Position numbers and translations under genes: made by a program | Source: Gemmatimonadaceae bacterium | GTDB taxonomy: Bacteria; Gemmatimonadota; Gemmatimonadetes; Gemmatimonadales; Gemmatimonadaceae | Direction: 5' to 3' | NCBI GenBank assembly: GCA_045803545.1 | Contig: JBJMOW010000005.1 | Span: forward strand, 288,001-352,000 | DNA: 64,000 nucleotides | In this document: piece by piece, positions 34,525 to 51,942 of the stretch | How positions within the stretch are numbered: the first letter of the stretch is position 1 | How the letters are laid out: every line of letters starts with the position of its first letter | The notes under the pieces: generated by a model | The model's input: only the letters and a program-made list of their open reading frames with translations | Databases searched by the model: none | What the model was told of the DNA's origin: nothing

Positions 34525-34859
34525 TGCACCTAGACCGTCGAGACTCGTCCATAACGCTGGAAGACCTTCCGGATGAGCTGCATCCGACTGCTTTGGCATT
34601 TAATAACTTAGAGCCTGGCGGCTTCAGTCACAAATGTGCGTGGTGTGACGAATGTGGATAAACGCGAGCCATAATAGGGCGATACCGCCAACAATACAAG
34701 CAGACGTTTTCTGTTTACTGGTGAGACCGGCCTATGGGCGGTTAATACTTGCTTTGATACGTCCGTAACGCTATCGAGAGGTCCCAGCTCAGCAACTCTC
34801 AAAGTTTTTTTGGCCAAGACAGGCATCCGCGCCTGACCGATGTCCTTTTATTTCGCCGT

Positions 34860-36113
34860 ATGTTCGCCGAAAACTCTGTTCGCGTAGCGGTAATCACATC
34901 TAACTATTGGCCCGAGCGTACCGGAATCGGTCAAGTGACGACCGAGTTCGCCGAGTATCTAGCTAGTCGAGGCGTTGATGTCAGGGTCGCGACGGCGAAG
35001 CCGTACTATCCAGAATGGTCCATCTACCCGGGTTACAGGAGAAACCTCTGGACAACGGAAGTACGTAACGGAGTAACCATTCACCGGGCAGCGCACTACG
35101 CTGCGCCAAACCCAACTACCTTCAGCAGGATCTGGCACGAAATAACGCTATGCTTTTTGACCGTTCCGAACGTTATCCGTGCTCTGCGGAATGTGAAGGC
35201 GGCGTTCGTTGTTTCGCCTGACCTTTCACATGCATTCGTGGGCTGTGTGCTGGCCAGATTGTTGGGTGTTCCCGTCACACTCATAGTACAGGATGTCATG
35301 CCCGACGCTGCAATCGATATGGGCATGCTGACCAACAAGCTGGTGATTGGAGTGTCGCGCCTTCTCGCACACGCGAACTATGCGTTGGCCAACACAATAA
35401 ACACACTCAGCCACGGTATGAAGGAACGAATAGCGCGCGCTATCCCTAATACGGACAAAATCAAAATTGTTCCGAACACGATCGAATCCGGTGAGCTCGC
35501 TCTTGGACCCGATCAGGGCAAAATTTTTCGTGACCGATTTGTGCCGAGCGGCGTTTTCGCCGTCATCCATACGGGGAACATGGGGGAAAAGCAGGATCTC
35601 CCTCTCCTACTGCGCACCGCCAGGCGGTTAATCACTCGCCCCGACATTCATTTCTTTGTGTTCGGCGATGGAGCGGTCAAAGAGGAATTTCTACGCGTTA
35701 AAGAAGCATGGCGTCTTACCAATGTTTCGCACTATCCCCTGCAGGAAAGGTCGCTACTTCCCCATATGCTTTTCGGTGCTGACGCATGCTTAGTGAGCCA
35801 GAGACCCGAAGTAGTAGACGTTGTAGTTCCATCGAAACTGATAACTGCAATGGGCGCTGGTGCGATGATAATCGCGGCGTGTTCACCGAACAGTGAATCA
35901 GCGAAGATCATCGAGGACAGCGGCGGTGGGGTTCACATCGCCGCGAGCGATGACGCGGCGCTGGCATCGGCACTCATTAGACTCGTAAACGGAAACATTG
36001 ACACGGCAGCTACCCGCGGTTTCGCCCGCGCGTATGCGGCACGCCACTTTGACCGTGCAAAGACGTATGGCGCTATAACAGAATTGCTAGTCAAGCGGTC
36101 CGGGCCAAAATGA
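34860..36113 (+). CDS. GT4 glycosyltransferase, WcaI-like
   Basis: NYWPE.TGIG..T.E, PYYPEW, VQD..PD, GNMGEKQ, PSKL. Confidence 0.85.
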   Translation: MFAENSVRVAVITSNYWPERTGIGQVTTEFAEYLASRGVDVRVATAKPYYPEWSIYPGYRRNLWTTEVRNGVTIHRAAHYAAPNPTTFSRIWHEITLCFLTVPNVIRALRNVKAAFVVSPDLSHAFVGCVLARLLGVPVTLIVQDVMPDAAIDMGMLTNKLVIGVSRLLAHANYALANTINTLSHGMKERIARAIPNTDKIKIVPNTIESGELALGPDQGKIFRDRFVPSGVFAVIHTGNMGEKQDLPLLLRTARRLITRPDIHFFVFGDGAVKEEFLRVKEAWRLTNVSHYPLQERSLLPHMLFGADACLVSQRPEVVDVVVPSKLITAMGAGAMIIAACSPNSESAKIIEDSGGGVHIAASDDAALASALIRLVNGNIDTAATRGFARAYAARHFDRAKTYGAITELLVKRSGPK

Positions 36114-36134
36114 CTGTTCTGATGGCTTCCGAGA

Positions 36135-37571
36135 TCAGCGGAGGGAAATCCTATTATGTACCGGTGGGTCACGACTTTCCCTCGCGTGGAACAAGGTCCC
36201 TGGAGCAGCCGGTCTATTTGCTGTCGGCGCCCAACGACGTTCGAGTATCAGTCCCGCGATTAAGGGTACCCAAAACATCGGAGATTCGAGAGGACTTTGG
36301 AAAATTCCAAATAGACCGAGATACAGATAGAGAATGATTAGATAGAGCCGTGAGTCGCGACCATTCGTAACAAATCTCGCATAAGCTCCATTCACCACGA
36401 AGCCAAAAAAGAAGCTGAGGACAGCAACACCGATCCACCGAAAATCCTGAAAAACGGAATACAGGACGGTGTAATATGCGTTGCTGAATATCGGGACGTT
36501 GAGTTTGTCGGAGTACCCGATTTTCACAAAGTCGTTGTGAAGAATTCCGTTGTCGCGCGCGACCGAAGGGAGTTCAACGCCGAGGACATGGAATGCATAC
36601 ACGCAGTAATTGTAGACCCCTCCGATCGAGGCTAACCCGTATGTTACCGCAGAATTGAGATGGGAGGCGCGGTCGATGAGTTCGCTGTCAAGGAGTGCGA
36701 ACCCGGCCGTGTGATACCATACGGCAAAATACCCCAGGGTCTCTGACAGAGTGATATCATGTCGACCCAGACGATAGTAGCTCAGAATTGCGAGTAAGGC
36801 GACCAGAGCACCCAGTGCACCAAAAGAAAGCAGCCGCCTGGTTTTCTTGCTGCGATTAGCTTTGGTGGGATCGCTACCACTGCGATTCGCGCGAAACCGT
36901 GCTGCAAAGATGGACGCGAGAAGAAAGAAATAAAGAGTAGTGCGGCCAAATTTCGCGAACGAGTCGAGCATGACCAATAAAGCAACTAGACCGAATAAGA
37001 CGCGCTCCTTGGTCGGCCGCCGCCAGCCTCGTGCGATCACCCACAGAAGTGCGCCGAAAAGGAGTGGGCTTACAATCGATCCATAGAATATTTCGAAAGC
37101 GGCTGACTGGCCGTAGAGCGTGCTCTTCCCCTGCAGGCCCCCGAGCGCGTCCGCCCGGTAACTAGAAAGGTCTCCAACAACTGCGACCTGAGACGCGCCC
37201 ACCGAAAAGACTTTCAATACAGGAACGGCGATGAGCAGGCAAACGACTAGCCAAAATTTCACGACGCGTTCGGAGGCGACTTGTTCGTCCGAGGGGCTGC
37301 GATCTCGGACATAACCCGGCCGGAAAGAGCCGGAAAAAGCGCCGCCGAGGAAGAAAACTAAAGCAGTGAGAACAAGAGTAACCAAGGTCAAACTGGGTGC
37401 TGGTATTCCAATAAAATCCTCCAACGCGACGACAAGCCAGCCAGACCACCACAAGAAAATTATGACCACTGGACTCGTCCAGACGTTGTAGCGGCGTCGG
37501 CAGGCAGCTGCCGCAGCGAACATTAGGGCAACTATCAACAGCTGAACTAACGACGTAACTGACAGGTACAT
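36135..37571 (-). CDS. wzy: O-antigen/polysaccharide polymerase
   Basis: Many TMs; late periplasmic loop NAYYT......QDF...G typical of Wzy. Confidence 0.7.
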   Translation of the reverse strand: MYLSVTSLVQLLIVALMFAAAAACRRRYNVWTSPVVIIFLWWSGWLVVALEDFIGIPAPSLTLVTLVLTALVFFLGGAFSGSFRPGYVRDRSPSDEQVASERVVKFWLVVCLLIAVPVLKVFSVGASQVAVVGDLSSYRADALGGLQGKSTLYGQSAAFEIFYGSIVSPLLFGALLWVIARGWRRPTKERVLFGLVALLVMLDSFAKFGRTTLYFFLLASIFAARFRANRSGSDPTKANRSKKTRRLLSFGALGALVALLAILSYYRLGRHDITLSETLGYFAVWYHTAGFALLDSELIDRASHLNSAVTYGLASIGGVYNYCVYAFHVLGVELPSVARDNGILHNDFVKIGYSDKLNVPIFSNAYYTVLYSVFQDFRWIGVAVLSFFFGFVVNGAYARFVTNGRDSRLYLIILYLYLGLFGIFQSPLESPMFWVPLIAGLILERRWAPTANRPAAPGTLFHARESRDPPVHNRISLR

Positions 37572-37824
37572 GGAATTGGGATAGCCGCCGGAACTGACAC
37601 TGTGAAGGGACTGGTAACCCGCTCGATTTGACAGACTTACGTTCAGTCAGCGATTACTATCCACGCTTTATATGTGCGCGCCGATTCAGCTGCGAGCCGG
37701 TCAGTAGCCAATCTGGAGCAATGCCCGCACAAAGTCACGATAAGATGCTGAGGAATCGAGTGCCCGTTACCGCCGGAAATTTTCCCTTCAATGATACACT
37801 AACGTCGAGAATTCGACGTTGGAA

Positions 37825-39180
37825 ATGAACGACCAGTGGGTTCGTTGGCTGCCATCGACGCTTGGCCGGCGCTTGAGTGGACGCCGCGGTCTACAAGCAA
37901 TTGTCGCAAATACCGGCTGGCTCTTTTTCGATACTTTCGTTCGGCTAGGTATCGGCTTCCTCGTCGGAGTGAAGGTGGCGCGTTATCTCGGTCCTGGCCG
38001 ATACGGCACACTTAATTTCGCGTCAGCCTTGGTGGCGCTCTTCGCGTCGGTTGCGTCACTTGGCTTGAACTCCATCCTAGTAAGGGATCTAGTGCGGTAT
38101 CCTGAAAAACGCGATGACCTTATAGGATCCGCATTCAGGTTAAAGCTTATCGGTGGTGTTTCTGCGTTCGTTCTGGGTCAAGTATGTGTATTCGTACTCC
38201 GACCAACGGACACCGTAAGCCAGCTCCTCGTTGCGATAATCGCTTCGAGTTTGATTTTCCAAGCAATGGACGTTGTGGATTCATGGCTCCAGTCGAAGGT
38301 GGAGTCGCGATTTGCAGTTTACGCACGCAACGTCGCTGTTCTCGTCGCCGCCGCTGTCAAAGTTGCGCTCATCATTGGGCGGGCGAGCTTGGTGGCTTTC
38401 GCGTGGGCGACCATGGTAGAGGCTGTTGTGGCGGCCATAGGCTTCGGCGTAGTTGCAAAATTACGCCTTCCTAGTCGCTGGTATCGCAGTGGCACATGGC
38501 CTCTCATGAGAGGGCTTCTGAAAGAAAGCTGGCCTCTTATGTTCTCCGGAATCGCGATAATGCTGTACATGCGGATCGATCAAATCATGTTGGCACAGAT
38601 GATAGGCGCAAGCGAAGTGGGGATTTATTCCGCAGCTCTAAGGATTTCCGAAATCTGGTATGTCATTCCGACAGCGATTGTGATTTCGGTTGCTCCATCG
38701 CTTACCGAGGCGCGTGAGAGATCGCAGCAGTTATATCAAGAGCGTTTTGAACAAGTCGTGCGTAACCTCGCAATCGTCGCCTATGGCGTCGCTCTCCTCG
38801 TGTTTGCAAGTGGCCAAAAAATCGTGGTGCTCTTATATGGCCAGTCATTCGCATCCGCCGGACCAATTCTCACCGTCCACGTCTGGGCTGCCGTTTTCGT
38901 ATTCGTGGGAGTCGCCGGCACCCCGTGGGTATTGAACGAAGGCCTGACAAGAATCGCTTTATATCGAACGGCCCTTGGTGCGCTCATCAACATTCTGCTC
39001 AATGTCGTTCTAATTCCTAAGTACGGAGGATTGGGTGCGGCTACAGCAACTATTATCTCGCAAGCTATTTCAGCCTGGATTTCCAACTTGTTTTTTGGAC
39101 CGGCGAGCCGCCACCTGTTCTATGTACAGACTAGAGCGCTATCGTTGGGCATTCTGAAACCCTCGCGGTGGCAGCGCTGA
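37825..39180 (+). CDS. wzx: Wzx flippase
   Basis: NTGWLF, VARYLGP..YG, LLKESWPL, YMRIDQIML, VGIYSAA.RISE, LIPKYG..GAA.AT. Confidence 0.92.
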   Translation: MNDQWVRWLPSTLGRRLSGRRGLQAIVANTGWLFFDTFVRLGIGFLVGVKVARYLGPGRYGTLNFASALVALFASVASLGLNSILVRDLVRYPEKRDDLIGSAFRLKLIGGVSAFVLGQVCVFVLRPTDTVSQLLVAIIASSLIFQAMDVVDSWLQSKVESRFAVYARNVAVLVAAAVKVALIIGRASLVAFAWATMVEAVVAAIGFGVVAKLRLPSRWYRSGTWPLMRGLLKESWPLMFSGIAIMLYMRIDQIMLAQMIGASEVGIYSAALRISEIWYVIPTAIVISVAPSLTEARERSQQLYQERFEQVVRNLAIVAYGVALLVFASGQKIVVLLYGQSFASAGPILTVHVWAAVFVFVGVAGTPWVLNEGLTRIALYRTALGALINILLNVVLIPKYGGLGAATATIISQAISAWISNLFFGPASRHLFYVQTRALSLGILKPSRWQR

Positions 39181-39199
39181 CTTCGCGTTTCGTCTTGTT

Positions 39200-40003
39200 A
39201 TGATGCCGTTGTCTGAAATGGTCCCTATCACAGTCCTAATAGCTAATAGAAATAACGCACGATTCCTCCGACGTTGTCTCGACAGTGTTAGACGACAGAC
39301 ATTCCCCGCTGGAGAGATCCTGGTTGTCGACGACGCCTCGACAGACGAGTCGCGGGAGCTTTTGCGCACTTATGCTGATGCCGGCACGATCACCTTAATC
39401 GAAAACGAACGGCAACTGGGGGTAGCTGCGAGTCGCGCAATAGGCGCGGCATCCGCTCGGGGACGATTTCTCACAACTCTTGATGCAGATGACTTTTACT
39501 TCACGAGCGAGAAGCTCGCAGCTGAGGCCGCTCTCGTCGACGTGCGTTCGCAGGGTACAATTGCATTCTCCGATGTAATGCGCGTCGATGAGCGCGGGAC
39601 CGAAATTGGCTTGGTATCGAACTCACGGAAAATCCGCGAAGGAAATCTATTCTTCGACATCCGTCACCTAAGAGGGTTTATTCCACGCGACTACCTAGTC
39701 TCTCGAGAGGATTATTTGCGAGCTGGTGGCTATAATAGGGAGTTCAAGATCTACGAAGATTGGGATCTCAAAATTCGGCTCGCGCGCTTTTGCGTTTGGC
39801 GTTTCTCTGGTGTGGTAGGAACGGCCTACACGCTGAATTCAAAAGGGCTCTCGAAGGCCCCGCGACGACAACACATCGAAGCAATGCGACGGGTATTCTG
39901 GGCCAACTGTCCTGCTGAATCTCCCTATGCTCGCCGCCTCGCATTCGCTCGATTTTTTGTCTTTCAGAGTCTGTACATGCGCAGACCAGCTGCCTCCCTA
40001 TGA
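39200..40003 (+). CDS. GT2 (GT-A) glycosyltransferase
   Basis: ILVVDDASTD, LDADD (DxD), GGY, EDWDL. Confidence 0.9.
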   Translation: MMPLSEMVPITVLIANRNNARFLRRCLDSVRRQTFPAGEILVVDDASTDESRELLRTYADAGTITLIENERQLGVAASRAIGAASARGRFLTTLDADDFYFTSEKLAAEAALVDVRSQGTIAFSDVMRVDERGTEIGLVSNSRKIREGNLFFDIRHLRGFIPRDYLVSREDYLRAGGYNREFKIYEDWDLKIRLARFCVWRFSGVVGTAYTLNSKGLSKAPRRQHIEAMRRVFWANCPAESPYARRLAFARFFVFQSLYMRRPAASL

Positions 40004-41286
40004 GCTATGCTGAGGAGGTCAGGGAATGGGATCAGTGGATCGCCGAAACGATTGGCTCGGGTGAGCTCGTCAGTGTAAGTGTACATAGTTCTGATTGCCG
40101 AATTTACCGAAAGGCGTCGAACGTCATTAAGGCTAGGCGCTTAACACCCGCATCTCTCCGCGCTCGGGTCAATTCGCTCGAGGATGAATTCCTCATTCTT
40201 CTTGCGCTCGCTCCGATCCCTGAGGCGCCGAAGCCAGTCAAATATGGGCGGGGCTCAGGCTGGGAGTATTTCGAGATGACAGGCCTTCCGCCGCTTCGAG
40301 TGAGTGATCCGACGTTCGGTTACCCAAAGGAGTCTTTAAAAGACTTTATCGCGGTCGCACTTCTCGTCTTTAGAATGAACTGCCTCGGTTGTTCTCATGG
40401 GGACTTGCACCGGCTGAACGTTGGACGCAACTCCAATGGTACGCTCAGCGTTTTCGATTTTGATCAAGCAGTTACGGGGATTCCTTTGCGGTGTTGGCTC
40501 AGGGATTTTTTTGGCATTGGCGCGTATTCGCGCATGGGCGACATCTCATTGTTTCGACGCGCGGCGGAGGTCGCGTGGATTTCAGTCTTCGTTAAGGGCT
40601 TGCGTGCCATACCCGTTGCACTTACGCGTCCCTTCCGTCGCCCGAGATCAATTGCGGATTCCACCTTGTTACTCGCGAGAGTCAACTTGATGAATTCGCC
40701 GCAATTGGATTCTCTAGCGAATGCTTGGATCCAAGCAGGTGAATCGAAAGCATCATCGCCGGGCACGCTCTCGGCTTACTACTCGCTCGACGTATCCGGA
40801 GTCAACTTTCCGGGTGAGCGGCCGTGGGTGCTCCGCTGGACACATATTCGGCGCTCAGTCGACTTTCGTGGTAAACGGTTTCTCGAGCTCGGTTGTAACC
40901 TCGGTTTGTTGGCCGCACATGCGAAACTCAGTGGCGCAAGCTTTTGCCTCGCCGTAGACATTGATGCCGATATTCTGAGCGCGGCGCGAATTGCAGCGAA
41001 AGCATTGGGAGCCGACGTTCAGTTTAGTCAACAAAACCTTGACTCGTCGAATCAGTGGGAAATGGATTTGAACGGATACGATATCGTCTCAGCTTTGTCG
41101 GTAATGCACTGGCTCAAAGACAAAGAACGCGCCTGGCGCTTTCTGGCAGACCAGAAAGAGGTCCTTTATGAGGGTCACGAATCGGGCGACGAAGCCGTAA
41201 AGCGGTTCCGCACGCTCGGCTTTGCTCACGTGTCGGTCCTTTCGGTGTCTGAACGCGGTCGTTCTCTCATCTATGCAGCGAAATGA
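40000..41286 (+). CDS. Bifunctional kinase-like / class I methyltransferase protein
   Basis: HGDLHRLNV and FDFDQA kinase motifs in the N-half; FLELGCNLG and LSVMHW methyltransferase motifs in the C-half. Confidence 0.7.
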   Translation: MSYAEEVREWDQWIAETIGSGELVSVSVHSSDCRIYRKASNVIKARRLTPASLRARVNSLEDEFLILLALAPIPEAPKPVKYGRGSGWEYFEMTGLPPLRVSDPTFGYPKESLKDFIAVALLVFRMNCLGCSHGDLHRLNVGRNSNGTLSVFDFDQAVTGIPLRCWLRDFFGIGAYSRMGDISLFRRAAEVAWISVFVKGLRAIPVALTRPFRRPRSIADSTLLLARVNLMNSPQLDSLANAWIQAGESKASSPGTLSAYYSLDVSGVNFPGERPWVLRWTHIRRSVDFRGKRFLELGCNLGLLAAHAKLSGASFCLAVDIDADILSAARIAAKALGADVQFSQQNLDSSNQWEMDLNGYDIVSALSVMHWLKDKERAWRFLADQKEVLYEGHESGDEAVKRFRTLGFAHVSVLSVSERGRSLIYAAK

Positions 41287-41385
41287 CATATTGTTGAATG
41301 ATGGGTTTTTTTGCCGACCCGAGTGCTTCACTCTGCAAGTCTTCCTAGCATGCGCAAAGCCAGGCGAGGTTGCGGAGCCAGCGAA

Positions 41386-42561
41386 TTAAGAGCCTGAGTC
41401 CAACGAAGGTATGAGGTCATTTAGCGTATCGCTCACCCCGTTTTCGCTAAAACGCTCTCGAATCCAATCGGCTGTTCGTTCGATGAGAAGCCTCTGGTGA
41501 AAGTAGAAGTCACGTGCTTCACAAAGCCGCCGCTTCAAATCCTTTGCTGAGCCGTCGAACCACATCACAGCGCCGAGATTCACACCCGACTGGGGGAGCG
41601 GAGTGGAGATGAGGACTCTCGCGGCCGCAAGGGCCTCGAACACTTTGAAAGGGAAGATCCCGTTCTTCATTGCGGCGATTGGTTTATGCGGGTTCGCGAT
41701 CACATCGCACTTGGTCATTAATCCGATGACTTGCTCCTGCGGCAGTGCATGAAAGAACGACAGACGAGAATTCGATCGTGCGATCCGCGCACATGCATTC
41801 GCGAGCGGGCCAACGCCAGTAATTACCATTCGCCAGTCGTTCGGCAACTCTTCACAAAGCTTTAGTAGTACTTCAACCCCTTTTTCGCTATAAAGCCCTC
41901 CGAAATACCCTAGCGTGTAGGGTGGCTTAGAGAATGGCGGCGTATTCTCTGGCGTGTCCGATAGTTCGGGGGCTAGAATGCCTGGGAGTAGGACGGTTGG
42001 AAGACCTGAAGATCGAATCAACTTGCAAACTTCCTCGTTCACACACGCGGCAAGCGAGGTGATAGGCAGGACTCTTCGCCGAAGGTACCAATCATCAATT
42101 AGAGGCTTAGGATTTAGGCCGCGGCTACGTGCAGTGTGTAAGTCCTCAATCTCCAACACGACCTTACAGCCTGTGCGCTCGTGCAGCTCTGAGGCTAGCA
42201 GCGCGTCAAAGGCGTACCCGTTATAAAGCCATACGAGAAAAGGATTTTCACGAGCCAGCCGCTTTGCAAGTTCCCGTACAGAGAACAGGTTTAGAAACTT
42301 CCCAACTGGGCGAAGGCGAACCGTGAACGGTTCAACGTGAATGATTGGACGACGCGCCCCCAGCGAAAGCCTGCCAACGCGACCACGTCGGAACTCTTGC
42401 CTGTTATGGGCTGAGTTAACAAGCCATATCTGACGCCCGGAGCGGGCAAGCACCCGCACTAAAGCGCTGATCTTATTGGCTCCGCCGAGAAACGGCACAT
42501 CAGAGCTGCCAATCGGACTGAAAGGAGCCAGAAAAAAGATGGGACGTTTGGCTTCTATCAC
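41386..42561 (-). CDS. GT4 glycosyltransferase
   Basis: GYFGGL..EKG, TGVGP, FPFKVFEALAA..VLIST. Confidence 0.82.
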   Translation of the reverse strand: MIEAKRPIFFLAPFSPIGSSDVPFLGGANKISALVRVLARSGRQIWLVNSAHNRQEFRRGRVGRLSLGARRPIIHVEPFTVRLRPVGKFLNLFSVRELAKRLARENPFLVWLYNGYAFDALLASELHERTGCKVVLEIEDLHTARSRGLNPKPLIDDWYLRRRVLPITSLAACVNEEVCKLIRSSGLPTVLLPGILAPELSDTPENTPPFSKPPYTLGYFGGLYSEKGVEVLLKLCEELPNDWRMVITGVGPLANACARIARSNSRLSFFHALPQEQVIGLMTKCDVIANPHKPIAAMKNGIFPFKVFEALAAARVLISTPLPQSGVNLGAVMWFDGSAKDLKRRLCEARDFYFHQRLLIERTADWIRERFSENGVSDTLNDLIPSLDSGS

Positions 42562-42658
42562 TTCCCGAGTTTCCCTAGGAGCGAGACGGATCGCATGCTA
42601 TACCTTGGTGAATCCCACCAGCAGAACCTGCTGCAGGATGGTTCGCGGCGGGCAGCTC

Positions 42659-43804
42659 TTAAATGGTGTGTTCGCGAGCGACGCTATGATAGAGATCCAG
42701 CCACTGTTCCCCTGCAACCGACCAAGAATATTTCTTAGCTATCAACTCTCTACTTTTTGCGCCGCGCAGTTCCCTCTCGCTGCCACTCATCCCGCACACT
42801 CTTTCCAACGCCTCCGTCAGCGCCGCTACGTCGTTCCCTACCAGAATTCCTCCACCCTCCTCCCAATCGCTCAGGCCGGTTTCTGGAGTCGTGAGGGTGA
42901 ACGTTCCGCAGGCGGCTGCCTCTAAGTTCACCATCCCCATTACCTCTGAGCGTGACGGTACCGCCACGCACCAAGCTGACCGAAAAAACTTCCAGAGATC
43001 TTCGCCGCGCAGGGTGCCAATTCTCTGAATGTAGCGGTCTTTCGGCGCGTTTCGGATACGACTGTCAAGGGCAGATTGATACTTGCTAGACGTTTCTGGA
43101 CCGGCAAGAACGAGTCTCCATCCTTGCGCATTCTTTGCCCGATAGAACGCGTCGATAAGAGCGTCGATTCCTTTTATAGGGTGCATGCGCCCCACGAAAC
43201 CTAGAACCCGTTCACGTGAGACCTCGCCCGCCGCACTTAGTTGTGCGTCAATAAAGTCAAGGTCTACGGCGTTGGGAACGATTTTGATCGTGCACCCCGG
43301 AAAAAAGCGGGCAAGCGTCCTTCCCTCAAGCGGTGTGATGGCATGAATTACGTTTGCCTTAGAAAAAGCTCTCGCTCCGAGGGCGCGCCAGTAAAGCTTT
43401 TTTCTTAGTTCCTTCAACAGGCCGCGATCGGTCCAGTGGTACGGGTCGAGCATACCGTGAAACGTGGCTACGAATGGTATGCGCCATCTCGCCGCAACCT
43501 GCGCCCCGACTAGTTGCGGAGCAAGCCAAGCCCCATGCAGATGTAAAACGTCCGGTCTCCAGCGCTCGCACACCTCTTCAACGGTTCGAACAAGATCCGG
43601 ACTCCAGGCCCAACGCCTCGCTAACGAAGAAGACGTGAGATTTATTTGCATTGCACCACGCTCAGGCAATGCCTCCGATTCCCCCGTGGTAAGCAGGGCA
43701 TTCTCAACTCTGTGAGCCGTCAGCCATTGGATAAGATTATGGACGACGGTAGTTACTCCCCCAGCGGCGCGAGAGTGCGTCTCCGTGATGTGAAGGATCC
43801 TCAA
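42659..43804 (-). CDS. GT4 glycosyltransferase (start uncertain; TTG at LRILH chosen)
   Basis: DVLHLHG, HGML, VPNAV, VGRMHPIKG, PSRSE.MGMV.LEAAACG. Confidence 0.88.
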   Translation of the reverse strand: MRILHITETHSRAAGGVTTVVHNLIQWLTAHRVENALLTTGESEALPERGAMQINLTSSSLARRWAWSPDLVRTVEEVCERWRPDVLHLHGAWLAPQLVGAQVAARWRIPFVATFHGMLDPYHWTDRGLLKELRKKLYWRALGARAFSKANVIHAITPLEGRTLARFFPGCTIKIVPNAVDLDFIDAQLSAAGEVSRERVLGFVGRMHPIKGIDALIDAFYRAKNAQGWRLVLAGPETSSKYQSALDSRIRNAPKDRYIQRIGTLRGEDLWKFFRSAWCVAVPSRSEVMGMVNLEAAACGTFTLTTPETGLSDWEEGGGILVGNDVAALTEALERVCGMSGSERELRGAKSRELIAKKYSWSVAGEQWLDLYHSVAREHTI

Positions 43805-43854
43805 GTTGTTGCCTTGGGCACTCGCAGCATTAACGTGCCGAGTCGCGAGGGCAC

Positions 43855-44433
43855 CTACGGCGTTAAGCCAGGCTGCGTCCGCGGGGTCACCGCTTTGGCC
43901 GGGTTCCCATAGCAAATCATCGCCCCAGCCAGGTCTGCGAACACACTACTCCTTGCTCCCACGACGGCACCCCGCCCGATTCGGCAGCCAGGTCCCACGA
44001 AAACGTCGTTCGCGAGCCAAACCTCGTCCTCCACAACGATCGATCTCGCCACAATTGGAAACGAAAGGTCTCGGTAATCGTGTGAGCCCGCGCATAAGTA
44101 GACCCGATGTGCAATCGCCACATTAGCCCCGATATGAATATCACCGAGGTTATAAATCACCGTTTCGTCGCCCACCCACGAGTGGTCACCAATTCGTAAT
44201 TTCCATGGGTAAGTGATTCGCGCAGACGAGCGGATCAATGCGCCGCGTCCGACTTCGGCGCCGAAGAGACGAAGTAACCATCGCCGCCATCCATAAAGGA
44301 TTTGCGGAGACCAGCGGAATAAGGTGGCGTCTACGAGCCACCACATTTGGACAAGAAGCGCAGATTTCCCACGGAAGCCGGGTGGCACTCGAAAGCGTGA
44401 GAGATCTTGATGAATAGCCGCGGAACGCATCAC
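43855..44433 (-). CDS. wcaF: Colanic-acid-type hexapeptide acetyltransferase
   Basis: WW.V..TLFRWSP, LLRLFGA, ITYPWKL.IGD.SWVG, LCAGSHDY, GNPA. Confidence 0.85.
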   Translation of the reverse strand: MMRSAAIHQDLSRFRVPPGFRGKSALLVQMWWLVDATLFRWSPQILYGWRRWLLRLFGAEVGRGALIRSSARITYPWKLRIGDHSWVGDETVIYNLGDIHIGANVAIAHRVYLCAGSHDYRDLSFPIVARSIVVEDEVWLANDVFVGPGCRIGRGAVVGARSSVFADLAGAMICYGNPAKAVTPRTQPGLTP

Positions 44434-45443
44434 CGGGTTTCGCGCTCAGTGGCGGAGCTTCTAAAATGAACTGCTGAGGAGCTCTGCGAGCGTAGCCACG
44501 TCACGGTTCGGCGCACCCCCTCCTCCATGGAATAGGGCAAACGACCGACAATGGCTTCAACTGGCGACAGATCATACACCATGTCGGTGAGGAGATTAGA
44601 AACTCGAAATGTAGTGACGGGGGGTTCCCAAATCCCGTTGGGCGGGATTAGGTCGCCAACGCGCCCCGCAAACTGAAGGACCCAACGTGGTGCTAATCTG
44701 ATTCGAGGTGCGCGAAAACATTCTTGGATCTTGTTAGCAAAGTCTCGTAACCCGAGGGGCGGATAGTCGGCGATGTAGAATGTCTTCGTCGCGGTTTCGT
44801 GTGACGGCGCCGAAAGAAGCTTCGCTAGCTGGTAAACAGAGTTGCCGACGTAGCCAAAAGACTTCCGAATGTCTGGGCCGCTCGGGTGGAAGTATTTACC
44901 AGCTCGGATAGTCAAGAAAAAGTCTTTGTAGGGTACGCCGAACCACTCGCCCCAAATGGAAGTTGGCCGAACGATTGTCCAGTGAAGCGCCGAACCCGAC
45001 TGGCGAACCAGTTCTTCGCCATCTGCCTTGCTCTGACCGTAGGCTGTGGTCGGTAGGTAATCCCTGTCGTGTTTAGGTTGGTAGCCAATCCGACAAACAA
45101 GCCGACTCGAAGCGAAAAAGATCCGCTCCACTTCCTTGTAGCGCGAAAAGACGTCTATAACGTTCGCAACACCCTCTGTATTCGCGCGATAATCTCCGAC
45201 CGTTTTCCCGTCCAGGTCAGTCCGTGCTGCGAAATGATATACGTGAGTAGGCTGGAACTCTTGAACATGACGATGCAAGTCGTTCACGTCGAGAATATCT
45301 CCGCGGCGCCAAACGCTTTCATGGAGCACGCAGCTCGGATGAGCGACATCCAAGCTAAGGACCTTATCGCCCTGATCGATGTGGTACTGAACGAGGTTCG
45401 TACCGAGGAATCCCGACCCTCCGGTAATCAAAATCCTTTTCAA
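44430..45443 (-). CDS. NAD-dependent epimerase/dehydratase
   Basis: ITGGSGFLG, AARTD, YGQSK, RPTSIWG. Confidence 0.88.
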   Translation of the reverse strand: MKRILITGGSGFLGTNLVQYHIDQGDKVLSLDVAHPSCVLHESVWRRGDILDVNDLHRHVQEFQPTHVYHFAARTDLDGKTVGDYRANTEGVANVIDVFSRYKEVERIFFASSRLVCRIGYQPKHDRDYLPTTAYGQSKADGEELVRQSGSALHWTIVRPTSIWGEWFGVPYKDFFLTIRAGKYFHPSGPDIRKSFGYVGNSVYQLAKLLSAPSHETATKTFYIADYPPLGLRDFANKIQECFRAPRIRLAPRWVLQFAGRVGDLIPPNGIWEPPVTTFRVSNLLTDMVYDLSPVEAIVGRLPYSMEEGVRRTVTWLRSQSSSAVHFRSSATERETR

Positions 45444-45725
45444 GGAGCGCCTGGCACTGGAGACACGTGATCGAATATCATGGAGCCGCCCGAAAGGTAC
45501 GCAAACTCCCAGGTTGATCCTGGCGAGTCCGCCGAGTCAAATACCGCATAACTGGTCACTCGCCGCGCCGGTGATAGACAACGAATGACCAAATTCCGAA
45601 GTTCGTCAAAGTTCTAATCGACGGCCCTGAGAAAACAATCTCTGCTCGATTCCAAGACCACACCAAATAATGATCTCAGCACGGCGCGCCGGTCATCGCT
45701 GAGCAACGCTCCCGACGCGAGCGGC

Positions 45726-46931
45726 GTGGCAATTTCGGCAGGCGATAGCGGACTTGCCGGATCTCCGGCGCGCTGGTACCGACTGCTCGCGTTCCAGCGT
45801 GTAACATCTTCGGGTCGTTTTATGCCCGAGATAGATGGCCTGAGATTTGTCGCAATCCTAAGCGTCTACCTCTACCATCTGAGCGCATTTGTACTCGTCA
45901 AAGAAGTGGCACTTCGCAGCGCGAGCTCACGATCGATCGTCGCTCAGTTGCTGGGACAGGGTAATGTTGGCGTGGAACTTTTTTTCGTGATCAGCGGGTT
46001 CATACTCGCACTTCCGTTCGCGTCGCATTACTTGCGGGGTACCAAGCGAGTATTACTGAGGGCGTACTTTCTCAGGCGGCTAACGCGTCTCGAGCCGCCG
46101 TACATTTTGAGTATGTTGATTTTTTTCCTCCTCCTAGTCGCCTATGTGGGAAAATCAGCTGCGGCACTCCTTCCGAACCTATTGGCAAGTCTCAGTTACA
46201 CCCACAATCTGATCTACGGAACCCACAGTACAATCAACACTGTCGCGTGGTCACTCGAAATAGAGGTCCAGTTCTACGCCTTAGTTCCGATCCTCGCGCG
46301 GGTCTTTAGCATCCGTAATGACGCGAAACGTCGCGCGAGCATCGCCGTTGCGATTGCGCTATCGATGTTTGTTCAGACGGTATTTAACGCGCCCGCAGAG
46401 TCGCGCTTTAATCTTTGCATTTTGAATTTTCTGCAATACTTCCTTTGCGGGTTTCTGTTGGCCGACTTCTACATTGTTGATTGGCAATCGGCCCCGACTG
46501 TCGCGCCGAGGTGGGACGTAGTTTCGCTCTTGGGCTGGCCCCTCGTTCCGATGATCTGGATGCACGCACAAACTTCACGTTGGCTACTCGGTCCAGTCAC
46601 ACTTGTGTTGTATTGCGCGGCATTCAAGGGGCGGTTTAGCCGAAAATTCTTCTCGGCGACTTGGATTACCTCAATTGGGGGTATGTGTTATACGATCTAT
46701 CTGCTCCACTTCCAGCTGATTTCGTTTGTTGGTCGACATACGATTGGTCTCACAACTTCAAATAGTTTTGCTGCTACGTTCGCGTGGCAGTTCATCATGA
46801 TCACGCCGTTTGTTCTGGGCGCTTGTTCAGTCTACTTTCTCGCTATTGAAAGACCGTGTATGCGGCCGGACTGGCCGGCGCGGCTAATGCGAAAAATCGC
46901 GGGCGGTGAGCCAGGAGCCAGAGTGGTTTAA
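45726..46931 (+). CDS. Acyltransferase family 3 (OafA-like membrane O-acyltransferase)
   Basis: IDGLR..AI..V..YH, GVELFFVISGF, RRLTRL.PPY, WSLEIEVQFY, YTIYLLH, IERP. Confidence 0.9.
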   Translation: MAISAGDSGLAGSPARWYRLLAFQRVTSSGRFMPEIDGLRFVAILSVYLYHLSAFVLVKEVALRSASSRSIVAQLLGQGNVGVELFFVISGFILALPFASHYLRGTKRVLLRAYFLRRLTRLEPPYILSMLIFFLLLVAYVGKSAAALLPNLLASLSYTHNLIYGTHSTINTVAWSLEIEVQFYALVPILARVFSIRNDAKRRASIAVAIALSMFVQTVFNAPAESRFNLCILNFLQYFLCGFLLADFYIVDWQSAPTVAPRWDVVSLLGWPLVPMIWMHAQTSRWLLGPVTLVLYCAAFKGRFSRKFFSATWITSIGGMCYTIYLLHFQLISFVGRHTIGLTTSNSFAATFAWQFIMITPFVLGACSVYFLAIERPCMRPDWPARLMRKIAGGEPGARVV

Positions 46932-47042
46932 CGTGACGCCAGAGCTTACACGCCCGAGAACTGAGAAAATCGTTGCGCCCCGAACGCGTTCAGCTACATT
47001 GTCTGCCTTCCCTACAGATGGTCCCGTGGCGCGCAGTCTTAT

Positions 47043-47891
47043 ATGAAGTTTCCCTTCCGTTCGAAGCGTTCGGCCTTTCTTGCGATCCCGTTTCTTTTTG
47101 GCCCGCTCGCCCGCGCCCAGCGTGTCGACAGCATTCGCGACAGCTACATCATAGCGCTGCCATCGGATGCTCAGCGTACTCTTCCGTACATTCCGATCTC
47201 CCCTGGATCTAGCACCGGAACTCCAACCGCGTACGGCGCGGACTGGGGCGATGTATTCGTCGGCGCCGGCTTCCAGGCACGCATGCGCTACGTCAGCGAT
47301 ACTCTTCCCCTCCGCAGGAAAGCGGACGGCGCGGCAGATATTGGGTTCGGCCTCGGTAACTCGGAGAGTGCGATCGGCATCGAGGTGAACTTCACCTCGT
47401 TCTCCACCGTGCGTTCGGGATTCTTTCACCACTCGACTCTCAGCTTCAAAGTCCACCGCGACTTGCCGTGGAATATGGCGATCGCGTATGGATGGGAAGA
47501 CGCGATTCGTACAAAAGGTACCGACGGCTGGACGAGCATGTACGGCGTACTGACGGGTGCAATACCGTTGCGCAGCGACCCTTACGCAGCGTTTAGCACG
47601 CTGACCGTATCGGCCGGCGCTGGCAACGGAAGGTTCCAGCGAGAGAAAGCTTTCTACGCTCGGGAAAACCATCTCAACCCGTTTGGCAGCGTGGGTTTAT
47701 ACGTCGTTCCAGAGATCTCGCTCATCGCGGATTGGACCGGGCAGGATTTGATGCTCGGAGCGTCGCTGGTTCCCTTCCCTCGCATCCCGTTTTTCATCAC
47801 CCCCTCCTTTGCCGATGTCACCGGATCCGCCGGCGATGGCGCGCGGTTCGTGATCGGAGTGGGTCTTGACTTTAATTTCGCTAAGCACTAA
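47043..47891 (+). CDS. Exported protein, putative outer-membrane beta-barrel (copy 1)
   Basis: Signal peptide ARA-Q; Gly/aromatic alternating strands; C-terminal strand FVIGVGLDFNF; paralog of 50410-51231. Confidence 0.6.
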   Translation: MKFPFRSKRSAFLAIPFLFGPLARAQRVDSIRDSYIIALPSDAQRTLPYIPISPGSSTGTPTAYGADWGDVFVGAGFQARMRYVSDTLPLRRKADGAADIGFGLGNSESAIGIEVNFTSFSTVRSGFFHHSTLSFKVHRDLPWNMAIAYGWEDAIRTKGTDGWTSMYGVLTGAIPLRSDPYAAFSTLTVSAGAGNGRFQREKAFYARENHLNPFGSVGLYVVPEISLIADWTGQDLMLGASLVPFPRIPFFITPSFADVTGSAGDGARFVIGVGLDFNFAKH

Positions 47892-47919
47892 GAATGTTTT
47901 CCCTTCGGAGGATCTCCAG

Positions 47920-48510
47920 ATGAAAATGAAGTTGTCAGTCGCGGTGTGCACAGCCTCGCTGTTCATCGCCTTGCCACTGTTCGCACAAGGCCAAAGCGGG
48001 CAGCCGCATGGCAACAACTCGGACCACTCGGGTCACGACAATGACGGCAAGAGTGCCGCACACCGCCAGGATGCTCCGCACGGATTCGGTGGCAACGTCG
48101 TGCTGTCCACGCCGGCGCAGGCCGCCGCAGTCGGTGGCGTGTTGACCACCGTCAGATCACAGCTCGCATCAGCATCATTCCGCGCATCGGCAGGACCTGC
48201 GATTCCAGCCGCGGCCCAATCGAATCTCAACTCGGTCATCGAGTCCGATGACGCGAAGTCGCCCGCAGCAACCGCATTGGCCGCGAAGCTTTTCACTGCC
48301 GGGCCGAAAGCCAGCCGAATCGTTCCCGATCTGTTGAAGGGATTCTCTGCGCTTCGTACAGATCCAGCGGTTCTGCCCTCGGTGGTCTCCCGCTTTAATG
48401 ACTTCACCAACGTCGCTTCTCCGGGCTTCATCACCAGCCCGCCGTCAGAATTCCTTGCTATGCGTGCTGTGCTCGCACAGCTAACCGCGGCGGCCGCCAG
48501 CGCGAAGTAG
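47920..48510 (+). CDS. Secreted hypothetical protein, His/Asp-rich N-terminus, helical C-terminus (copy 1)
   Basis: GGAGG RBS before ATG at 47920; signal peptide LFA-Q; paralog of 51244-51897. Confidence 0.7.
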   Translation: MKMKLSVAVCTASLFIALPLFAQGQSGQPHGNNSDHSGHDNDGKSAAHRQDAPHGFGGNVVLSTPAQAAAVGGVLTTVRSQLASASFRASAGPAIPAAAQSNLNSVIESDDAKSPAATALAAKLFTAGPKASRIVPDLLKGFSALRTDPAVLPSVVSRFNDFTNVASPGFITSPPSEFLAMRAVLAQLTAAAASAK

Positions 48511-48533
48511 CTTCCGCCACGGTCTAAAAATCC

Positions 48534-48565
48534 AAAAGCCTCGCGAGAAATCGCGAGGCTTTTTT
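48534..48565 (+). terminator. Rho-independent terminator (possibly bidirectional)
   Basis: AAAAGCCTCGCGA-GAAA-TCGCGAGGCTTTTTT hairpin with U-tract, ~25 nt after the stop at 48510. Confidence 0.88.
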
Positions 48566-48777
48566 GCATCCGCATCGAAGTTCTGTACGAAAGCAGACCG
48601 AACTGGATCGCTTCCACGCGTAAAGAATTTTTCGTCTTGCGGCGATTCAAAACACACGTATTATGACCGACCGCTGCCGCATCTACGCACTGTGAGGGCA
48701 GTTCAACTACCCGTTGCGAGTCTGCAACACTTTCCATCGGTTCGAGTGCGTAAGTAGCGTCAAAGAGAGAGTTTAGC

Positions 48778-50376
48778 GTGGGCAGCGTATTGCGTGGCGA
48801 CGACGGCGTGACAATGCCACAGCCGGTCGTCAAAAATCGGAGACTAAGGTTCTCCACCCCGGTGAACGGGCCCGTCAAGTTCGGGCACGAGGCGCCGGCC
48901 ATCGGCACGACGAGCCCCTGGGCCCGGCCCACACCCCTCATCATCCAGGGTCGCGCACGCGCCGTCGAACGCGCGCGGATCGCCGAGACCGCTACCCGCA
49001 TCGCGGTGCTCCTAGTCGTCGATCTGCTCATTCTCTTCCTCGCGCACGCTGTCGTCGATGCCGCGCGCGCGTCGACCGCATTCGGCGGGGGTCTGGCGGT
49101 GTTTCTACTGGACCTTATCCCTCGCGGCAGTTTCCCGCGCGTCGAGGTCCTAACCGCGGTCGTCATCGGCCTCACGATTTTCGGCAACTATCGCGGCAAG
49201 TCCGCCTGGCATAACGCAATCAATCTCCTCGCCGGAGTCAGTCTCGGACTGTCTCTGGTGTTCTGGAGTCGCATCTGGACCGACATAACCCTCGCGAGAG
49301 TGCTCGGCTATCTGGTGGTTCTCGCCGCCGTCGCCGTCGCTCTTTCGAGCGGTCGGTACATTTTGTTCAAGCTGGTCGAGCGAGTCCGTCCAACACCGCT
49401 CAAAGTCTCGCGCGCGGTCATTCTTGGATCCCGCCGGCGCGCCGAGGGGCTCCAGCGCTCCGAAGGTGTTCGCCTCAATCCGCACCTCGAGGTTGCCGGC
49501 TACGTCACGCTCGACGGCAACGTCAGCGACGGGTCGCTCGGCTCGCTGTCTGACCTCGTGTGGATTCTCGAGCGTCACGATGTAGACAGCATCATCCTCG
49601 CCGATCATCTCGACGACGATGCGCTGTTCGATGTCCTCGCGGTTGGTGAGCGTACCGGCTGCGAGGTCCTTCTCGACGCACCGATGTTCCCGCTCGGCGG
49701 CTTCGTGCCGCGTATCGTCACGCGCGGCAACATTCCCTACATCACCATCACCAGGCCGAGCCTTCGGTTGCGGCAGCTGGTCTCGAAGCGCGCTTTCGAC
49801 GTTGTCTGCGCATCACTGCTGCTCGTAACGCTGGCACCGGTATTCGCCGTCATTGCGCTGGTTGTACGGCTGACGTCGAAGGGACCGGCATTTTTCCGTC
49901 AGGCTCGCGTCGGCTACGGCGGCAAGCCGTTCCACATGTACAAGTTCCGCAGCATGGTCAACAACGCGGAATCCCTCAAGGCGACGCTACAGACCCAAAG
50001 CATTTACAGCGACGCGAGGCTGTTCAAGATTCCGAACGATCCACGCATCACTCCGGTCGGACGCTTCCTGCGCCGGTCCAGTCTCGACGAGCTTCCGCAG
50101 TTGTGGAACGTATTGATGGGCGACATGTCGCTCGTTGGTCCGCGGCCGCCACTCGCCAGCGAAGTCGATACCTACGAAGAGCACAACTACACCCGCTTCG
50201 ACATGAAGCCCGGCATCACCGGGCCATGGCAAGTGGCGGGACGCAATCGAATCACCAGCTTCGACGAAGTCGTCGCGCTGGAGACGAATTATTTGACCGA
50301 CTGGTCGCTGATCAAGGACTTCTCGATCCTGATGAAAACCGTTCCCACTGTGCTCAGCATGAGCGGCGCAGTCTAG
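48778..50376 (+). CDS. Priming polyprenyl-phosphate sugar-1-phosphate transferase (WcaJ/WbaP-like); start uncertain
   Basis: 4 TMs + CoA-binding-like domain + [60 protein letters not shown]. Confidence 0.93.
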
Positions 50377-50409
50377 AGACATTCTTTCCCGATTGAGATC
50401 GGAGGCAGC

Positions 50410-51231
50410 ATGGCAGTATCGGCTCGCAAATATTCGCTCGTCCTCGCCGGCGCTTTGATTGTCGCCGGCAACGCCGGCGCACAGAACCCGGACAGCCTGC
50501 GAAATCTCTACACGCTTCCGGTTCCCGTTCTGGCGCCGCAGCACTCACCAGTGCGGGCGTCGCCCGGTACGAGCGTGCAATCGCCGACGGCCTTCGGTGC
50601 CGACTGGGGCCAGGGGTACGTCGGGGCGGGCTATACATCGCGCATGCGTTATATCCACGGCGCAAATCAGATGGATGGCGCGGTGCTGGCGGCGTTCGGA
50701 TTCGGCAGTGCGACGAAGTATGTCGGTCTCGAGGCGACGGTGACTTCGTTCTCGACAGTGCGCTCCGGCTTCGGTAACCACAGCTCGGTGAGTTTCAAGG
50801 TTCATCGAGAGTTCCCCAGCAACTTCGCGCTCGCGGCAGGCTGGGAGGACGCGATCAGAACGGGCGGCACTGACGGCGGCACCAGCGGCTACGTCGTTGC
50901 GAGCAAGTGGTACAAGCGGCTCACTGCATCTGCAGGTATTGGCGGCGGACGCTTCAAGACCGAGACTGCGCTCGCCGAGGACAGAAAGACCTTGAACGCG
51001 TTCGGCAGCCTGGCCTTCCAGGTCGCCAGCCCGATCTCGCTCATCACCGATTGGTCGGGACAGGATCTCGGCATTGGTGCTTCGCTCGTTCCGCTAAAGA
51101 GTATTCCTCTCTACATCGAGCCTGCGTTCGTCGACCTCACCGGTTCTGCAGGTGATGGCGCGCGCTTCGTGCTCGGTGTCGGATTTGGTTTCAGGTACAG
51201 TCAGCTCGCGTCACTCTTCGGATCCCACTAA
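50410..51231 (+). CDS. Exported protein, putative outer-membrane beta-barrel (copy 2)
   Basis: GGAGG RBS; signal peptide AGA-Q; shares PTA(F/Y)GADWG, RMRY, TSFSTVRSGF, SFKVHR, GSAGDGARFV with 47043-47891. Confidence 0.62.
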   Translation: MAVSARKYSLVLAGALIVAGNAGAQNPDSLRNLYTLPVPVLAPQHSPVRASPGTSVQSPTAFGADWGQGYVGAGYTSRMRYIHGANQMDGAVLAAFGFGSATKYVGLEATVTSFSTVRSGFGNHSSVSFKVHREFPSNFALAAGWEDAIRTGGTDGGTSGYVVASKWYKRLTASAGIGGGRFKTETALAEDRKTLNAFGSLAFQVASPISLITDWSGQDLGIGASLVPLKSIPLYIEPAFVDLTGSAGDGARFVLGVGFGFRYSQLASLFGSH

Positions 51232-51243
51232 CCGGGTACGGCC

Positions 51244-51897
51244 ATGAAAATCAAAGCGTATGCACTGCTCTGCGCCCTCGGTCTGTTCGCCTCGGCTCCC
51301 GTCTACGCGCAAGGCAACGGGCATCACTACGGTAAAGGTCACGGCAAGGGGAATCCTCATTCCGACAAGCAGGGCCACGACAACAACGGCTCTGACAAGC
51401 ACGATCGCGACGGTGACGATGACGACGATCGTTCCGAGCGTCGCTTCGGCTTGCTGAAGACCCGCGTGAATGATGTTGTCGCGGCGCTGTCGATCGGCAC
51501 CTTCACGCTGGCTGACGGCGCGCCGGTTCCGCTCATCGCGCAGGGCAAGCTCTACGTGGTGATGACCAATGCAATGACCGCCGCGGAGATGCCGCCCGCC
51601 CTCGGCACGCTCGCATCGACTGGTGCAGCGGTGTCGTTGGACTCACCCGATGCGACAGCGGCGAGTGTAGCGCGCTTCGTGGCGTCGTTCGCCGACGCCG
51701 GGGCCCCGTCGCAGGTCAGCTTCAACTTGCTTACCCAGGATCTCGCCGGCCTTGCCTTCAATCCGCGGCAGGTGCCGAAAGTGGTCGCCGATTTCAATGA
51801 GTTCGTAAAGACGGCGTCACCAGCGTTCCTTGCCAATCCACCCGCCGAGTTTCTCGCGTTGCACGCGGTGCTTGGGAGGTTTGTTAAGGGGATGTAG
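51244..51897 (+). CDS. Secreted hypothetical protein, His/Asp-rich N-terminus (copy 2)
   Basis: Signal peptide VYA-Q; GHHYGKGHG..HDRDGDDDDD; C-terminal FNEF..ASPAFLANPPAEFLA shared with 47920-48510. Confidence 0.7.
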   Translation: MKIKAYALLCALGLFASAPVYAQGNGHHYGKGHGKGNPHSDKQGHDNNGSDKHDRDGDDDDDRSERRFGLLKTRVNDVVAALSIGTFTLADGAPVPLIAQGKLYVVMTNAMTAAEMPPALGTLASTGAAVSLDSPDATAASVARFVASFADAGAPSQVSFNLLTQDLAGLAFNPRQVPKVVADFNEFVKTASPAFLANPPAEFLALHAVLGRFVKGM

Positions 51898-51899
51898 GC

Positions 51900-51934
51900 G
51901 GGAGGCGGGAAGCGGGAAGCGGGAAGCGGGAAGC
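51900..51934 (+). repeat. GGGAAGC heptamer tandem array
   Basis: GGGAGGC followed by four exact GGGAAGC units, between two convergent stop codons. Confidence 0.9.
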
Positions 51935-51942
51935 GCGGGCGA

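Follow-up and report, generated by a model that had tools for sequence, protein, structure and literature searches.

Paired genes for a predicted outer-membrane barrel and a secreted partner in a Gemmatimonadaceae polysaccharide locus: a possible docking port for peptide-tagged proteins

What do two pairs of neighbouring genes, neither of which matches a characterised family, contribute to a bacterial polysaccharide locus? This question is raised by a stretch of 64,000 nucleotides from a Gemmatimonadaceae bacterium (assembly GCA_045803545.1, contig JBJMOW010000005.1, positions 288,001 to 352,000; hereafter the window), in which a gene for a predicted outer-membrane barrel (A) is followed by a gene for a secreted partner (B), once before and once after a gene for a WcaJ-like priming glycosyltransferase (Table 1). 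The original prediction, made from the sequence alone, regarded these pairs as an outer-membrane module dedicated to polysaccharide. Here, we propose that A is an outer-membrane docking port which holds the product of the neighbouring gene at two points, a reading to which we give about an even chance of being right. As in other bacteria the barrel adjoins unrelated partners carrying the same N-terminal tag, A probably acts as a docking device of general use and not as a pore for the export of sugars.

The tag is a short peptide, NxSDx[TS]G, with which the B proteins start directly after their signal peptide. It is repeated in some members, and its residues Ser34 and Asp35 are nearly invariant. 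The original prediction had described a His/Asp-rich linker in B, which is present, but had missed this peptide, its key element. The new observation is that the gene following the barrel starts with NxSDx[TS]G even when it does not encode B: these non-B neighbours often encode a CHAT-domain protein or a small helical protein. With a peptide matrix trained on B-paired rows alone, as was the arm profile used below, and a threshold of 10, 11 of 24 non-B next genes reached the threshold (two of the 11 being probably divergent B), compared with 2 of 1,167 background genes. A held-out set of 50 additional cyanobacterial loci gave 49 next genes, of which 17 reached it (6 CHAT, 6 other non-B and 5 B, with one B near-identical to a training row), compared with 1 of 551. 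A DNA pattern of the peptide alone retrieved a CHAT gene, and an A gene was found directly upstream of it. In the window, B1 scores 24.7 and B2, which carries the two degenerate copies HSDKQG and NGSDKH, scores 13.2, both proteins being in the training set. In the 70 B rows (of 75) whose motif could be scored, a linker of 16-107 residues (median 33) separates the peptide from the folded domain. Linkers are rich in Gly, Ser and Thr, and some partners have long ones rich in Pro, Thr and Glu.

A role of the tag as a genome-wide sorting signal is unsupported by exact DNA patterns in five cyanobacterial genomes, where the strict pattern gave 2 matches, one of which was real and adjoined A, and a looser pattern gave 7 matches, compared with 5 control matches. 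This test is insensitive, since exact patterns also missed known degenerate copies. The rarity of the tag points to a one-to-one match between barrel and partner and away from a general route.

With regard to the barrel, two of its regions follow the partner. At the sequence level, the N-terminal arm changes with the class of the partner: it is of the LRxxYxLP type with the B domain and of the FxPxRxP type with CHAT proteins, and it is a coiled arm with small helical proteins. Among held-out barrels, the arm profile recognised 19 of 20 paired with B, 0 of 7 paired with CHAT, 0 of 8 paired with small helical proteins and 10 of 17 with unclassified partners. The second region is the predicted outer mouth. 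In the 86 barrels whose partners bear the motif, residues Q78, R82, Q234, D235, and R268 show 98-100% conservation, compared with 54-67% in the 57 barrels without such partners (18 intermediate rows left out). The structural glycines, D95, K136, H138, and D258 stay conserved in both groups.

The coupling of A and B across phyla, anticipated in the original prediction, is apparent both from neighbourhoods and from co-occurrence. In the fetched loci, B lies at most two genes downstream of 132 of 186 barrel genes, duplicates included and L080-L101 left out as re-fetched; it lies upstream of 12, some of which are second barrels of a tandem. In a sample of 201 genomes of the order, A was found in 16, and B in 13 of these 16 and in 0 of the 185 without A, using a B profile built partly from the same genomes. 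A was also found in 31 of 201 genomes of the cyanobacterial phylum and in Longimicrobium and Rhodothermota loci, and the A-B pair spans Gemmatimonadota, Cyanobacteria, and Rhodothermota.

Structure prediction suggests how the pair is joined. B comprises a signal peptide, a disordered segment up to approximately residue 61 and a helical domain modelled with a predicted local distance difference test (pLDDT) score of 92-98. Co-folding of A1 (residues 26-282) with B1 (residues 23-196) gave a score of 0.73, compared with 0.02 for the best of three controls; this mark is reached by 116 of 157 solved pairs and by 2 of 215 mismatched pairs, a calibration that is roughly valid here, own alignments having been used. 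The A1-B1 runs share at least 32% of their contacts, and the partner has a pLDDT of at least 73. The confident part of the predicted interface joins residues 27-46 of A1, the arm, to residues 59-67 and 152-193 of B1, and is centred on a motif already flagged in the original prediction. The helical domain of B is thus predicted to grip the N-terminal arm of A.

Fusions are in line with this model. B-A fusions occur in 2 of 147 representatives, none with an internal signal peptide: in P0406, a single sequence, B is joined to the barrel and the arm is lost, and in P0416/P0481 the arm is kept. Other relatives of A carry SLH (L005), OmpA-C (L068) or low-complexity extensions, and OmpA-C is fused to B in L191 and L193. 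As OmpA-C and SLH domains bind the cell wall, the arm and the B domain are most likely periplasmic.

No recurring Pfam family was found for B across 75 members, its domain has no match in NCBIfam and no usable one in Atlas, and those members that bear a name are called hypothetical. Fold searches gave generic helical matches with a best Z of 6.3, and Foldseek returned none at E 0.001 or better. This lack of a fold match does not show that the fold is new.

That A is a membrane barrel, as originally predicted, is supported by an AlphaFold2 model of A1 based on an 80-row alignment, which exhibits 12 strands at residues 70-278 with a mean pLDDT of 81 and values near 50 at residues 36-60. The top fold matches are tied: FapF (Z 16.6, root-mean-square deviation 2.9, 197 aligned residues) and KdgM (Z 16.4, root-mean-square deviation 2.2, 158 aligned residues). 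GalP (15.5), COG4313 (15.5), and NanC (14.6) come next, along with NalP, and autotransporter barrels rank close behind FapF. The structural alignment with FapF, at 9% identity, begins at residue 46 of A and residue 88 of FapF. The available part of PMC5557850 gives residue 88 as the start of the FapF plug. The model of A presents a 12-stranded plugged barrel as in FapF, with low confidence in the plug region. In sequence searches, A matched no PDB chain up to E=5 and received no family name from Pfam and NCBIfam. The original prediction, in which neither family could be assigned a known function, is supported in that neither A nor B matched a characterised family in these searches. The predicted outer loops are more conserved than the periplasmic turns (18 of 64 compared with 2 of 28 positions), the sidedness following from the general rule that the termini of beta-barrels are periplasmic. 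Loop 6 of A (approximately 47814-47846) contains an invariant DVTGSAGDG, which resembles the partner peptide (DVTG) and also what we take to be a Dx[DN]xDG-like calcium loop. Four Longimicrobium barrels (L044, L056, L063, and L065) have long N-terminal extensions rich in Ser, Ala, Gly, and Thr, and adjoin wza and an asparagine-synthase-like gene.

The closest known counterpart of A appears to be the N-terminal barrel of YjbH and GfcD. The original prediction had drawn an analogy with the group 4 capsule gfc/yjb locus, and this analogy is on the right track for A and fails for B. In the parts of PMC11494523, bioRxiv 10.1101/2021.02.17.431615 and bioRxiv 10.1101/2022.02.11.480155 that are available, the 12-stranded N-terminal barrel of GfcD is described as FapF-like; the available part of bioRxiv 10.1101/2021.02.17.431615 gives only a speculative role for the N-terminal barrel of GfcD/YjbH and no close single-barrel homologues. 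Like these proteins, A has 12 strands and a PTA motif ahead of strand 1; the two also match weakly by profile across strands 4-6, include a QSDxxG peptide in their systems and are linked to capsule loci. In contrast, YjbH and GfcD have approximately 700 residues, with a middle domain and a 13-stranded C-terminal barrel, whereas A is a single barrel of 273-282 residues; they belong to group 4 capsule operons, whereas most A loci are not capsule loci; and they carry QSDxxG in cis, whereas the peptide of the A-B system is on a separate partner. In E. coli YjbH and GfcD, QSDFGG lies 14 residues before a PTA motif that aligns with that of A. The PSQSDFGG of YjbH scores 15.0 on the peptide matrix (2.5e-5 per window), and 13 of 27 YjbH-family rows (3 more lacking the anchor motif) score at least 8, compared with 0 of 63 A rows in that region. 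Peptides in cis on A barrels were also considered and rejected, the 4 of 147 representatives that score at least 10 resembling chance or internal windows; the only clear case is the QSDVSG of L055 (score 17.2), a Rhodothermota barrel without an adjacent B.

The sequence signal between A and YjbH is weak. A2 matches PF06082 with 17.7 bits (E=0.0017), below the curated cut-off of 24 bits, A1 does not match, and weak matches occur in 5 of 80 A members (best E=0.0014). HHalign of A with YjbH gives E=0.012 with a probability of 3.5%. The comparison of A with a single-domain YjbH/DUF940 model gives a template modelling (TM) score of 0.69. We therefore regard A as a relative by fold, not as a member of the family. 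The profiles of A and B matched none of eight K-12 gfc/yjb proteins, which led us to reject B as a homologue of GfcA or YjbE, and no homologue of gfcA/B/C or yjbE/F/G was found in the neighbour scans, which covered 109 proteins only. A search for shorter YjbH proteins gave mostly fragments, and among 201 genomes of the phylum PF06082 turned up in 2. A further genome of this phylum encodes a stand-alone YjbH-like barrel of 253 residues (L206), which has the PTA motif and no QSD peptide.

Based on these results, we propose the following mechanism. At one contact, predicted by co-folding and backed by the fusions, the folded domain of the partner would clamp the N-terminal arm of the barrel and would probably stay in the periplasm. 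At the other, the free NxSDx[TS]G peptide on its flexible linker would enter the lumen from the periplasm, as we infer from a linker long enough to span the barrel and a folded domain placed below it; the peptide may then be retained close to the outer mouth by Q78, R82, Q234, D235, and R268. It would thereby supply in trans a plug element that YjbH and GfcD would carry in cis. In the window, the two pairs would provide the capsule locus with accessory anchor points in the outer membrane, and would not form the polymer channel. Barrels with a separately encoded partner are also known from RcsF-OmpA/OmpC, in which the partner occupies or threads the barrel lumen, and from LptD-LptE. In the available part of PMC8592465, LptE is described as a plug. 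Unlike RcsF and LptE, the partners of A lack a lipobox, bear an N-terminal peptide that is portable, and can be exchanged from one barrel subfamily to another.

Several observations weigh against this proposal. In the held-out set, 32 of 49 partners score below 10; most of these adjoin divergent barrels and start with Ser/Gly-rich peptides of another kind, and some have none. The contrast in mouth residues is confounded by phylogeny, and its negative group includes mis-called open reading frames; nor are related sequences independent in any of our counts. Since the complex model placed the NxSDx[TS]G peptide without confidence, its entry into the lumen is a deduction, and the plug segment of A itself (pLDDT approximately 50) may fill the lumen. 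The sidedness of the loops rests on a general rule, and the cis/trans link may reflect convergence or chance, given the weak sequence homology to the YjbH N-terminal barrel. We also entertain, more tentatively and with the chances rather against it, a wider reading in which these barrels form an undescribed class of peptide-addressed outer-membrane ports. The lumen would capture the peptide, a subfamily-specific arm would select the folded domain, and A would be the split form of the YjbH/GfcD N-terminal barrel, the QSDFGG of YjbH/GfcD being a built-in ligand. The same port would then have been adopted for two kinds of partner, a helical adaptor in capsule loci and caspase-like CHAT proteins, and may act as a switch that passes signals from the surface to the periplasm.

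The polysaccharide link on which the original prediction relied is real but partial, and the same data decide how far A can be regarded as the channel of the short Wza, on the model of composite OPX/barrel translocons and with B acting as an adaptor in the periplasm. Among loci of at least 10 kb, 36 of 98 hold wza, wzc or wcaJ, compared with 3.1% of random windows (duplicates included; random windows taken from this genome), and the distance between wza and the barrel is at most 2.1 kb in 25 of 36 loci that contain a wza. As in the myxobacterial translocons (WzpX/S/B), the barrel gene often adjoins an OPX gene. Wza is present in 15 of 16 genomes of the order with A, compared with 88 of 185 others, and KdgM, a 12-stranded sugar porin, ties for the best fold. 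However, Wza occurs in 103 of the 201 genomes and 88 of these 103 have no A match (the tally counts the unpublished genome G090 as a single row, without which the claim would stand as well); capsule-export genes were found in only 7 of 48 held-out cyanobacterial loci, the other 41 having none. As most Wza-positive genomes do without A and most loci have no capsule genes, a dedicated Wza pore is unlikely. Moreover, on sequence inspection, both Wza of the window, like most Wza encoded near the barrels, have a hydrophobic helix-like segment of their own at the C-terminus, unlike in composite translocons, and the conserved charges of A mix acid and base. The available part of bioRxiv 10.1101/2022.02.11.480155 describes the myxobacterial partner barrels as 18-stranded, compared with 12 strands in A. 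The original reading of A as a separate barrel for the short Wza is therefore not supported, and we rate the channel reading as very unlikely; a module dedicated to polysaccharide is not supported either, for all the enrichment near wza, wzc and wcaJ. A small-solute or oligosaccharide porin gated by B is about equally improbable. The fold scores of KdgM, GalP, COG4313 and NanC, nearly tied with that of FapF, would suit it. KdgM and NanC share the 12-stranded fold and have an open lumen lined by basic tracks; the conserved charges of A are mixed. A differs from KdgM and NanC in its N-terminal plug and arm and in the close coupling to a partner gene. Against a porin, A has many lumen-side glycines and a conserved plug segment, its neighbours include no genes for transport or catabolism that recur, and CHAT partners with matched arms would be left unexplained.

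Two further explanations concern the peptide itself. If A were a FapF-like protein exporter, the peptide would be a secretion signal, the arm contact a loading or surface-anchoring step, and the whole partner would end on the surface or in the matrix. This would account for one portable tag on unrelated partners, for the conserved outer mouth and for the long Pro/Thr/Glu-rich linkers, and it agrees with FapF, a polypeptide exporter, as the top fold match, with autotransporter barrels close to it. FapF (PDB 5O65) and COG4313 resemble A in the 12-stranded barrel, in the N-terminal segment aligned to the plug and in an operon with secreted partners, often proteases; according to the available part of PMC5557850, FapF works with a periplasmic protease, and A often adjoins CHAT or trypsin-like proteins. 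Nevertheless, A gave no sequence match to FapF, the window proteins have no long coiled coil, and B is modelled as a confidently folded helical domain, not as an amyloid-repeat protein. As B is also fused to the peptidoglycan-binding OmpA-C in two loci and the tag was not found genome-wide in the five genomes scanned, we consider export unlikely. In the other explanation, the peptide is a Ser/Thr glycan-attachment or modification site, and A-B a membrane anchor for capsule chains. The nearly invariant Ser34 and Asp35, the repeats of the motif, the Gly/Ser/Thr-rich linkers and a Wzy_C-like gene in the window (E=1e-6, below the cut-off) would fit, and a similar idea is voiced for GfcA in the available part of PMC8592465. 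However, CHAT proteins carry the same peptide in loci that have no sugar genes, and the residues of the barrel mouth vary with the peptide, which favours protein recognition over glycan attachment. We give this explanation little credence, although the two readings of the peptide are compatible.

Table 1. Position of the barrel-partner genes and of related features, counted from the first nucleotide of the window
Feature	Position	Strand	Description
Long Wza	18656-21145		multi-SLBB Wza (OPX), 829 residues
Short Wza	33877-34599		Wza (OPX), 240 residues
A1	47043-47891	+	282 residues; predicted 12-stranded outer-membrane barrel
A1, parts			signal peptide 1-25; docking arm ~27-46; putative lumen plug ~46-68; barrel 70-278 (residues)
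B1	47920-48510	+	196 residues; secreted partner of A1
B1, parts			signal peptide 1-22; GNNSDHSG peptide 31-38; flexible linker; helical domain ~62-195 (residues)
Terminator-like hairpin after B1	48534-48563	+	13-pair stem
wcaJ-like gene	48778-50376	+	WcaJ/WbaP-like priming polyprenyl glycosylphosphotransferase; PF02397 E=5e-67
A2	50410-51231	+	273 residues; second barrel paralogue; weak YjbH PF06082 match
B2	51244-51897	+	217 residues; second partner

The order of the genes on the + strand (A1, B1, hairpin, wcaJ-like gene, A2, B2) is as originally described, and all the shared motifs quoted at that time were found in the translations. GGAGG precedes the ATG of B1 at 47920. The hairpin region has a fold z of -3.5, with 0 of 200 shuffles equally stable; the hairpin scan placed it on the - strand, and T's follow it on the + strand too. 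The wcaJ-like gene is above the TIGR03025 cut-off and below the WcaJ equivalog cut-off; we treat it as context and do not claim that it belongs to the module. A1 and A2 share 49% identity across 274 residues (E=1e-78), B1 and B2 share 27% (E=1e-19), and at the DNA level the likeness of the copies is confined to one piece of 190 nucleotides (69%). The genome (3.7 Mb) holds no further copies of A or B. In a quick tree, for which 145 rows were thinned to 108, A1 and A2 fall into two sister subclades, each with other metagenome members, which is consistent with an old duplication. This agrees with the original view of intact copies retained from an old duplication, as all four reading frames are intact. 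Close homologues that bear names come from Gemmatimonadaceae. Among relatives, a single pair lies 3' of wcaJ (L001, L103, L118, and L122), before cpsB-wcaJ (L140) or before hflX (L110), so the symmetrical placement around wcaJ looks incidental, the flanking not being conserved; both copies in one locus were seen in none of the listed fetched loci, which are mostly short contigs. In six soil RNA runs, contigs match parts of each of the five genes, many of them with 95-99% identity; we do not count these matches as proof of expression, since DNA may be present in the libraries and the genes cannot be ranked by depth.

The window as a whole is a large polysaccharide region with two Wza, a Wzc, a CpsB-type phosphatase and a Wzz-like gene. 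A secreted arylsulfotransferase-like gene (25792-27225) hints at a sulfated polymer. The guanine plus cytosine (GC) content is 0.53-0.56 at 34000-48000, compared with 0.60-0.64 in the flanks, and the acyltransferase gene before A1 has a third-position GC content (GC3) of 0.59; the lower GC suggests that this glycosyltransferase block may be horizontally exchanged. Between B2 and hflX, at 51898-51937, a short tandem repeat of the GGGAAGC type forms part of a hairpin. Its very high summed depth in DNA runs suggests that the repeat is common in soil Gemmatimonadaceae.

Outside this locus, recurring contexts of the A-B pair include COP23 with a trypsin-like peptidase, and CHAT. In Oscillatoriales (L003, L015, L037, L070, and L075), the pair follows repeated COP23 and trypsin-like/TPR peptidase genes, and in L017 and L040 it lies near genes whose sequence starts presumably resemble those of phage-tail sheath genes. 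An unnamed family of secreted helical proteins of 135-146 residues (SDITGTNIWN; L029:11336-11749, L046:11096-11503, L252:10579-10992) has its own barrel subfamily and sometimes stands in tandem behind an A-B pair. The partners of a divergent barrel clade (L279-L296) start with repeated SPSxGTAGS-like peptides, not with NxSDxTG.

The family of A is sizeable (1,225 clusters at 50% identity, E 0.001 or better), occurs in at least three phyla and is unnamed in the libraries and literature searched; no paper on the A-B pair was found in this literature, whose coverage stopped short of subscription journals and supplements. What the family offers is a readable pairing code, in which the type of the arm matches the domain of the partner and the mouth residues track its peptide. 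It also provides a concrete hypothesis for the N-terminal barrel of GfcD and YjbH. Should the tag by itself be enough to bring proteins to the barrel, it would also provide a compact tool for anchoring in cyanobacteria.

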